Source of the DNA: Candidatus Aldehydirespirator sp.
GTDB lineage: Bacteria > Actinomycetota > Acidimicrobiia > Acidimicrobiales > Aldehydirespiratoraceae
Assembly: GCA_965261105.1 (NCBI GenBank)
Contig: CBDHCM010000005.1
Coordinates: 58,358 to 122,357, forward strand
DNA: 64,000 nt
Direction of reading: 5' to 3'
Below the pieces are notes generated by a model. The model saw nothing but the letters and a program-made list of their open reading frames with translations, did not search any database and was not told the origin of the DNA. How positions within the stretch are numbered: position 1 is the stretch's first letter; the number at the start of each line of letters is the position of its first letter. A program made the position numbers and the translations under genes. Shown piece after piece: positions 5,611 through 6,768 of this stretch.

Positions 5611-5686
5611 TGGGCGAAGTGAGTCCCGACCGTCCCCTCGATCGGACAGTTTCGTCTCGTACCACCGCCCGTTTGAGAAATTAGCA

Positions 5687-5773
5687 GTGTCGCCGGGGTT
5701 CACGCCCCGGCCTTCGTTGAGCGGCGTCGAACGGCACCCCGGGGCCGGCTCCGGCCAGGTGTCGCCGGGGTTC
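5687..5773 (+). CRISPR. Orphan mini CRISPR: 37-nt repeat, 35-nt spacer, truncated second repeat (type I-G/I-U-like)
   Basis: GTGTCGCCGGGGTTCACGCCCCGGCCTTCGTTGAGCG (5687-5723; hairpin GCCGGGG/CCCCGGC, TTGAGCG end), spacer 5724-5758, GTGTCGCCGGGGTTC 5759-5773; no cas genes in window. Confidence 0.7.
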
Positions 5774-5778
5774 GGGCA

Positions 5779-6768
5779 CTAGATCACGATGCGTTCGATC
5801 TCGTCGATGGTGATCGTGTCGGCCGTCCGGTCGTAGAGCTTCGTCGTCTTCGGGGAGGCGTGCGCGGCGATCCGCTGCGCGTGTTCGAGCGTCCCCCCGT
5901 TCGACAGATACGCCGTGATCCCCGTCGCCCGGAACGTGTGGCAGCAGGTCGAGGGCGGCAGACCCGCGGCCGCCGCGCGCCGCTTGATCATGGCCAGGAC
6001 GAGACGCCGCGACAGCGCCCGGCCCGTCAGCCTCCGCCCCGCCGGGTCGACGCTCTGGAAGAGCGCCGCCTTCGCCTCGTCGAGCCCGGCCAGCTCGAGG
6101 TAGTCGTCCAGCGCCTCGGCCGCCCGATGGTGGGCCGGGACGTCGTGCCGCTTGCCGCCCTTCTCGTGGAGCCTGAGCCACCCCCGGCTCTCCTGCCAGA
6201 AGTAGTCCTGCTTCCGCATGCCGATGACCGCGCTCACCCGCGCGAAGCTGTAGAGCATCACCGAGACGAGCGCCCGGTCGCGCCGGCCCGCGAGCGCGGC
6301 GGTGTCGATCGCCTCGAGGAGCCGGCGGGCCTCGGCCGGCGAGAGCACCGGCGTCGCGCCCTTCGTGACGACGTGCTTCGGCCCCCGCACGGCCGCCGCC
6401 GGGTTCACCGGGATAACCTGGCTGACGACGAGCCAGTCGCCGAGCATGCGGATGGCGGCCAGGTGCTGCTTGACCGTGGGCGCCGACCCCGGGTGGGTCC
6501 GGATGTAGGCCGCCACGTGCAGCGGCGAGACCGCCTCGAGCGCCAGGCCGCGCGCCTCGCACCAGGCCAGAAACTGCCCCACGGCCCGCCCGTACGCCGC
6601 GCGCGTCCGCCGGTTGGCGATCCGCGCGGCGAAGAACTCCAGGAACCGCTCCACCGCCGCGGAGCCCGCGTCGACGATCAGCTGCGGCAGCACGAGCTCG
6701 ACCCGCTGCACGGGGCCCGTGCGCGCGACGTCCACCGGCTCGGCGACCGGCACCAAGACTTCGCTCAT
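5779..6768 (-). CDS. Tyrosine recombinase/integrase
   Basis: RDRAL...FARVS, EKGGK, HTFRATG, HASPKTTKLY catalytic R-K-H-R-H-Y set. Confidence 0.95.
   Translation of the reverse strand: MSEVLVPVAEPVDVARTGPVQRVELVLPQLIVDAGSAAVERFLEFFAARIANRRTRAAYGRAVGQFLAWCEARGLALEAVSPLHVAAYIRTHPGSAPTVKQHLAAIRMLGDWLVVSQVIPVNPAAAVRGPKHVVTKGATPVLSPAEARRLLEAIDTAALAGRRDRALVSVMLYSFARVSAVIGMRKQDYFWQESRGWLRLHEKGGKRHDVPAHHRAAEALDDYLELAGLDEAKAALFQSVDPAGRRLTGRALSRRLVLAMIKRRAAAAGLPPSTCCHTFRATGITAYLSNGGTLEHAQRIAAHASPKTTKLYDRTADTITIDEIERIVI

Follow-up and report, generated by a model that had tools for sequence, protein, structure and literature searches.

A single-spacer type I-G CRISPR unit beside a plasmid tyrosine recombinase gene, probably the remnant of a collapsed array

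The CRISPR unit and its surroundings

A short CRISPR unit, made up of a leader end, one full repeat, one spacer and a partial repeat, lies tail to tail with the tyrosine recombinase gene int1 on a small contig of assembly G000. The whole stretch of DNA that we analysed, hereafter the window, is 64,000 nt long and corresponds to C5:58358-122357 of this assembly, which is 95% complete and consists of C6, at 4.63 Mb, and five smaller contigs in the range of 32-127 kb. Because RepA_C and ParA-type proteins are encoded in the window, we call C5 plasmid-like, in keeping with the plasmid setting that was proposed in the original prediction. The features at the locus are as follows, in coordinates of the window.

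5484..5615, plus strand: codons 1-44 of a type ISP restriction-modification gene that breaks off at the leader start (by protein comparison)
5616..5686, plus strand: repeat-proximal 71 nt of a type I-G leader (by alignment to the C2 and G688 leaders)
5687..5723, plus strand: full 37-nt type I-G repeat with hairpin, identical to 12 trailer-side repeats of the C2 array
5724..5758, plus strand: single 35-nt spacer, present in four copies with 0-3 differences; no target found
5759..5773, plus strand: terminal repeat piece, the first 15 nt, cut in the hairpin loop (read from the sequence)
5774..5778, no strand: 5-nt linker up to the int1 stop codon, identical in three copies and different in the C5:35919 copy
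5779..6768, minus strand: int1, XerC/D-like plasmid tyrosine recombinase, convergent on the unit (PF00589, E 3.5e-19)
6773..7285, minus strand: 170-aa partner gene directly upstream of int1, with no Pfam family
7411..7426, no strand: dif-like inverted site with two 5-nt arms and a 6-nt centre, candidate own site of int1
5687..10397, no strand: 4,711-bp block identical to C4:47014-51724 (exact identity)

These coordinates reproduce exactly the layout that had been read from the sequence at the outset, namely a 37-nt repeat, a 35-nt spacer and a 15-nt repeat piece, with 5 nt remaining to the recombinase stop codon. That stop codon occupies 5779-5781, and the minus-strand protein is 329 aa long. 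In the predicted fold of the repeat RNA (-17.1 kcal/mol, z -1.9 against shuffles) a 4-nt loop occupies positions 14-17, and the break after position 15 therefore falls in the hairpin loop, as had also been claimed. The alternative GTGTC/GGCAC hairpin proposed for the truncated end did not hold up, being no stabler than shuffled sequences (z -0.18; 82 of 200 shuffles fold as well), and the predicted pairing of the spacer with the half repeat is not significant (z 0.98). An Rfam search returned CRISPR-DR20 alone, at 15.7 bits and E 3.8, under that family's cut-off of 42. Given the exact repeat matches in the C2 array and in loci of the GTDB collection, described below, the repeat-spacer-half-repeat pattern is far beyond chance.

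The DNA ahead of the repeat is AT-richer, as first described, with 50% GC in the last 40 nt and about 67% around. Aligned to the leader of the C2 array it is identical in 43 of 71 columns, a score matched by 0 of 1000 shuffles, and aligned to the leader of a type I-G array in G688 it is identical in 49 of 70; no significant likeness was found to three other leaders (L022, L023 and that of C6). These alignments indicate that the 71 nt upstream of the repeat are the true end of a type I-G leader. Directly before them, 5484-5615 codes for the N-terminal 44 residues of a type ISP enzyme. These residues share 86% identity with a 1,100-aa protein that has PF02384 and PF18135, and the match ends at residue 44, where the leader starts. 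A scan of 5250-5850 for sigma-70 types found no such promoter, and no plus-strand terminator was found at the unit.

The assignment to type I-G in the original prediction is borne out by C2, on which a 95-repeat array adjoins a complete type I-G operon (csb1, csb2, cas3, csb3, cas4, cas1, cas2): the window repeat has 0 mismatches to 12 of the 95 repeats, all trailer-side, and in most of the remaining 83 two positions are different. The exact repeat is also present in four loci of the GTDB collection, titled Vicinamibacterales, Bryobacterales or Acidobacteria, and two of them stand beside cas4-cas1-cas2. Since the exact repeat occurs in loci with these titles and int1 is rare among relatives in the genus but not in genomes of G675's order (see below), the small contigs of G000 may be common to several hosts or mis-binned. 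A second type I-G operon, with a different repeat, lies on C6, and C4 carries csb1, csb2, cas3, csb3 and 28 codons of cas4 (csb1 corresponds to PF09617, and csb3 matches NF049934 below cut-off). C5 itself has pieces of csb3 and cas4 about 27 kb upstream of the unit. The description of the unit as an orphan, with no cas genes in 64 kb, stands for the window, where queries with the seven type I-G proteins of C2 found no cas gene, but not for the assembly, which has type I-G operons on C2, C4 and C6. Thus the window copy has the matching repeat and the leader of a type I-G array but no adjacent cas operon in the window, whereas cas genes stand beside its sister copies.

On C4, the genes csb1-csb2-cas3-csb3 are followed by a cas4 cut at codon 28, without cas1 or cas2, and the one-spacer unit is the sole array of that contig (C4:51388-54852 and 1-3280). 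C4 is likely a circular, 55-kb plasmid because the contig ends join inside cas3; the reading frame of this putative cas3 changes at the contig join only. On C1, a 16-repeat array (C1:22569-23738) has neither leader nor cas genes and has 6 of its 15 spacers and the trailer in common with the C2 array. In each of these two arrays the last repeat is a 15-nt piece, and a convergent recombinase of a second family lies about 110 nt away. Separately, C6:550452-550487 matches a spacer of the chromosomal type I-G array at 36 of 36 positions, with a 5' flank that is not TTN.

Elsewhere in the window, 52873-56667 (minus strand) holds an operon of SMODS nucleotidyltransferase, bacterial HORMA, AAA ATPase and TIR-SAVED genes, which we take to be the make-up of a HORMA-type CBASS system; it is preceded, at about 56767-56977, by a fragment of the int1 partner gene. 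Coding-type repeats in long arrays, with periods of 255/258/501 nt and 102 nt, and a repeat cluster of 23-nt period occupy 25091-28316, 61356-62318 and 60968-61097. Additionally, five copies of a 1.7-kb insertion-sequence-like element, 81-100% alike, lie at 1479-3163, 14094-15778, 44726-46435, 49172-50870 and 62676-64000.

Copies of the unit and the int1 module

The repeat, spacer, half repeat and int1 end occur together in four copies, one in the window and the others at C4:51724, C5:37141 and C5:35919. The latter three have no leader and are preceded by csb3 and a cas4 cut at codon 27-28, and every copy lies behind a broken gene, a type ISP gene in the window and cas4 at these three sites. 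Four intact cas4 genes continue beyond the cut with Gly-Val-Trp codons that resemble the start of the repeat, which suggests a microhomology deletion as the simple reading of the cas4 junction in the sister copies.

Identity between the window and C4 runs from the first base of the repeat to window position 10397. Besides int1 and its partner, the identical block contains an FGE-sulfatase/peptidoglycan-binding gene (7570-9198) and a second tyrosine recombinase gene (9321-10298). Because a small gene at the block boundary runs through in the window and is cut in C4, C4 likely received the block. This small gene (10298-10586, minus strand) has a relative at C1:46976-47156 and a 4-nt deletion near the end of the window copy. 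Between C4 and C5:37141 the spacer differs at 2 of 35 positions and int1 at 11 of 291; by this comparison the spacer is not better conserved than its flanks and gives no sign of tighter constraint. The C5:35919 copy is decayed, with a changed repeat, a stop in int1, 3 of the 5 linker letters different and 10 of 97 third positions changed. Relative to the identical C4 copy, the window copy has gained no spacer.

Pieces of the locus were also found in public runs, for which contigs of 8 of the 24 listed runs, from five studies, were compared (X1 was left out as a possible source, and X19 and X20, with a small share, were unused). The broken gene and the leader are present without differences in X5, X8, X9 and X15, and the segment from the spacer through the half repeat to the int1 end is present in X8, X9 and X17, with a single changed letter in the spacer; in X8 and X17 the last 25 nt of int1 alone follow the half repeat. 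Several of these pieces extend fewer than 31 letters to one side of a junction, and no contig joins the leader to the spacer in any of the 8 runs compared. Recurrence in independent runs shows that the pieces persist, which is also expected for the cargo of a very abundant mobile module. The unit was not found in 60 relatives, in PLSDB, in the 4 genomes with the exact repeat or in 301 genomes of G675's order, for which 2 candidates per genome were scored. Literature searches on mini-arrays with a tyrosine recombinase and on orphan CRISPR in sponge symbiont plasmids, with most subscription journals and supplements outside their scope, turned up no account of this unit.

The int1 protein scores below the NCBIfam XerC/XerD cut-offs and has relatives at 151 places on 140 PLSDB plasmids; a relative is present in 1 of 38 genus relatives and in 1 of 400 phylum genomes, while three genomes of G675's order have 9-14 int1 ends each. 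A close-match search of IMG/VR found none. The partner gene is linked to int1 on C1, C3, C4 and C5 and in G035 and G839. A dif-like site with a variable centre lies 126-134 nt upstream of the partner gene in four modules of G000 and one of G035, and a sixth such site lies about 0.9 kb before a distant int1 relative; none was found on the 4.6-Mb chromosome or in the G839 module. This upstream inverted site resembles dif. The module of int1 and the 170-aa gene (window 5779-7426; C1, C3, C4 and C5 of G000; G675, G839 and G973) is very abundant and often present as 3' fragments.

By their flanks, the 14 int1 ends in G000 form 11 classes, only one of which, the four-copy class, touches a repeat. 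Fifty distinct int1 ends in other genomes fall into 44 classes, and 0 of the 50 abut a half repeat. No repeat is present within 500 nt of 10 of the 14 ends in G000 and of 49 of the 50 elsewhere; the exception, in G839, has two full repeats 67 nt from the int1 stop codon and is an independent mini-array, found with a repeat-containing query. Judging from these flanks, unrelated DNA is often joined to the end of the int1 gene. The gene probably reached the end of the array in one such event, which may have cut the repeat, with no sign of repeat recognition. The cause of this turnover of flanks directly behind the stop codon may hold more interest than the CRISPR unit itself.

Origin of the unit

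Among 23 other array ends (C1 and C2 counted as one; single hits and one contig-end array left out), 7 keep just the 5' part of the last repeat, namely 11, 12, 15, 19, 19, 25 and 31 nt, including the 15-nt piece of C1/C2 and the 19-nt piece of the C6 array, while 3 have a degenerate full-length last repeat and 13 no recognisable piece. Two inner repeats are cut as well, at 9 and 22 nt, and none of these cut repeats abuts int1. According to PMC8047081, terminal repeats often have 3' substitutions or truncations, and arrays seldom lose their last spacer but collapse when recombination between repeats deletes the inner ones. Orphan arrays are described in PMC9071438 as commoner on plasmids and shorter than cas-linked ones.

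We therefore favour, with a probability of roughly three in four, the reading that the unit is the remnant of a longer type I-G array that collapsed by repeat-repeat recombination and lost its cas genes, with int1 joined once without recognition of the repeat. A leader, one repeat, the last spacer and a truncated repeat are the end point of collapse as described. The array scar, a fallback in the original prediction, fits best. The spacer is likely the oldest (trailer) spacer of the parent array, and the neighbouring recombinase is likely a bystander, not the cutting enzyme. Because no parent locus was found with this leader, inner spacers and this last spacer, we infer the parent locus and the collapse, next to the directly seen identity of leader and repeat, four copies, broken upstream genes and frequent truncation.

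The parent would have been a plasmid type I-G locus that ended in this spacer and half repeat. A single non-specific rearrangement would have brought the end of int1 to a distance of 5 nt and may have severed the repeat inside its palindrome. Repeat-to-repeat deletion would have removed all inner spacers but not the last, which could not be removed by repeat recombination because the terminal repeat is incomplete. Later deletions would have taken the cas genes (in the window) or the end of cas4, cas1, cas2 and the leader (in C4 and C5), and the unit would now be spreading as cargo of the recombinase module. If it is transcribed, Csb2 would cut the full repeat, and the resulting spacer RNA is predicted to guide poorly because it would lack a 3' hairpin. 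We would like to note that a crossover between two different arrays at the repeat would give the same junction.

A working mini-array or array seed, to which the co-resident Cas4-Cas1-Cas2 of C2 would add spacers and whose spacer would guide the C2 or C4 Cascade against a competitor, is unlikely. The leader end and repeat needed for this are intact, all seven I-G proteins are encoded on C2, and csb1, csb2, cas3 and csb3 stand ahead of the same unit on C4; refilling of collapsed arrays has been reported, as summarised in PMC8047081, and the RNA run X15 covers the leader and repeat and not the spacer, which fits other spacers behind the leader, a gap in a contig proving nothing by itself. However, the spacer search proposed in the original prediction, against phage and plasmid databases and the host genome, gave no target: no protospacer was found in PLSDB, INPHARED, IMG/VR, JGI metagenomes or the own genome (the habitat's elements being thinly sampled), the best matches in plasmids and phages have 82-89% identity over at least 80% of the spacer at E 0.02 or worse, and the best of 117 viral and metagenome loci (40 + 23 IMG/VR loci and 54 metagenome loci, none with the repeat of the unit) has 7 mismatches. 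The spacer is likewise unlike the 230 spacers of six other arrays. In type I-G, Csb2 binds the 3' hairpin of the crRNA and not its 5' handle, as described in PMC9638904. The downstream repeat of the unit stops in the loop and gives no such hairpin for a mature crRNA, and because the half repeat lacks the hairpin that Csb2 binds, the spacer RNA would by analogy be a poor guide. The leader is moreover down to 71 nt with no sigma-70-like promoter, the window copy has no new spacer compared with the identical C4 copy, and the presence of C2 and C5 in one cell, which this reading presumes, is putative. A mini-array directed against a competitor is thus without support; the unit would matter more if its leader and repeat were refilled by the adaptation genes of another plasmid.

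Even less probable is an RNA role, either as an RNA anti-CRISPR, in which handle-plus-spacer RNA released by Csb2 without a 3' hairpin would tie up Cas7, or through a spacer that steers Cascade to a promoter. Repeat-derived RNAs that form aberrant Cas subcomplexes (PMC10651486) and promoter-targeting crlRNAs (10.1101/2024.10.29.618823) are described, and the unit is multicopy and present in several studies, but its repeat is not solitary, having an exact 15-nt piece 35 nt downstream. This places the unit outside the plain definition of a solitary repeat unit given in PMC10651486 (no partial repeat within 100 bp); the 15-nt piece is under the 50% partial-match coverage of SRUFinder, and the program's own call on the unit is uncertain. 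A TTN-flanked 11-nt seed (every sixth base free) has a single match in the whole assembly, which lies on the chromosome, compared with an average of 0.75 for 40 of the 94 C2 spacers; there is no match at 14 nt, and the three cas upstream regions that were scanned contain no TTN-flanked seed match longer than 4 nt. Seed matches in the assembly and the cas upstream regions thus do not exceed the control, toxin promoters being covered by the genome-wide scan only. The upstream context also varies between copies, three of which have no leader, and the plus strand has no terminator. An RNA anti-CRISPR or regulatory crRNA, as originally suggested, is left without support by the non-solitary repeat and the lack of a PAM-seed match to a cas promoter. 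Just as improbable is a mobile decoy against type I-G immunity, in which Csb2 would cut the one full repeat and be held on a dead-end leader-hairpin RNA, the hairpin-less spacer RNA would soak up Cas7, and the unit would travel with the highly mobile recombinase module through plasmids of sponge-associated bacteria. A hairpin-less RNA that inhibits I-G Cascade would, if true, make the unit matter more.

We consider it very improbable that the recombinase uses the repeat loop as an attachment site, with the half repeat as attL, in the manner of phage AP1.1, whose integration into CRISPR repeats leaves attL and attR (10.1101/2020.10.09.333658). In favour of this option, the repeat is broken within its loop and just 5 nt separate it from the stop codon, the 3' flanks of int1 change right after the stop (11 classes for 14 ends in G000, 44 for 50 elsewhere), one copy has a different linker, and a further mini-array in G839 sits close to the end of an int1 gene. 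Nevertheless, the search for the missing repeat half found no orphan 3' half among 155 matches in the 95% complete assembly, the 2 flagged matches being variant repeats within the C2 array, and the 3' flanks of integrase homologs, another suggested check, have a repeat in 1 of 11 classes in G000 and abut a half repeat at none of the outside ends, the G839 repeats being full and 67 nt off. Break positions range over 9-31 nt with no recombinase beside those breaks, int1 has a candidate site of its own upstream, and the 3 linker changes in the odd copy are unexceptional next to its changed third positions. The attachment-site option is therefore also left unsupported by the absent other half and the outside ends. 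Most improbable of all is aberrant Cas1 joining, which in the sister copies would have linked a DNA end in cas4 to the repeat's first base, giving a half-site product, with loss of the adaptation genes. The cas4 junction does fall at this base, to which Cas1 attaches the non-PAM end as described in PMC10504553, but the intact cas4 codons resemble the repeat start at that very point, and microhomology explains the junction. Only one event would be involved, and the window junction, a natural leader-repeat join, is not concerned.

In G839 no csb1 match was found, yet four separate one- or two-unit repeat shards, some of them cut, lie among broken int1, int2 and csb2 pieces (C1:4191901, 4336315, 4953699 and 5378215 of that genome; L277, L278, L233 and L276). 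They would pass for solitary repeat units or mini-arrays. If the unit in the window is a remnant, it would be a clear natural example of full array collapse and otherwise of little consequence, and it would caution that on such plasmids a one-spacer unit or a solitary repeat may be debris mimicking a mini-array or an RNA anti-CRISPR.

Comparison with known systems

Similar to the type I-G CRISPR-Cas system described in PMC9638904 (Csb2, Cas7/Csb1, Cas8g/Csb3, Cas3), the unit has a hairpin repeat with an 8-nt 3' end and cognate operons on C2, C4 and C6; unlike that system, it could not yield a crRNA with a 3' hairpin held by Csb2. With the RNA anti-CRISPRs from solitary repeat units, as presented in PMC10651486, it shares a repeat on a mobile element away from cas genes, but it differs in its partial repeat 35 nt away, its real leader and its sister copies in cas operons. 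The integration of AP1.1 (10.1101/2020.10.09.333658) likewise puts an integrase-type gene beside a split repeat, whereas here there is no second half, no core common to the repeat and other int1 ends, and no reused position. The orphan plasmid arrays and systems without adaptation genes surveyed in PMC9071438 are alike in being short, cas-less plasmid arrays, or in the case of C4 effector genes without cas1-cas2; in contrast to them, the unit has one spacer, no intact downstream repeat and no target found. Unlike the collapsed arrays described in PMC8047081, the unit has no cas genes, a leader cut to 71 nt and a remnant copied among plasmid-like contigs, but it resembles a collapsed array with a truncated terminal repeat in its leader, its repeat, its retained last spacer, its 3'-truncated repeat and the disappearance of the inner spacers.
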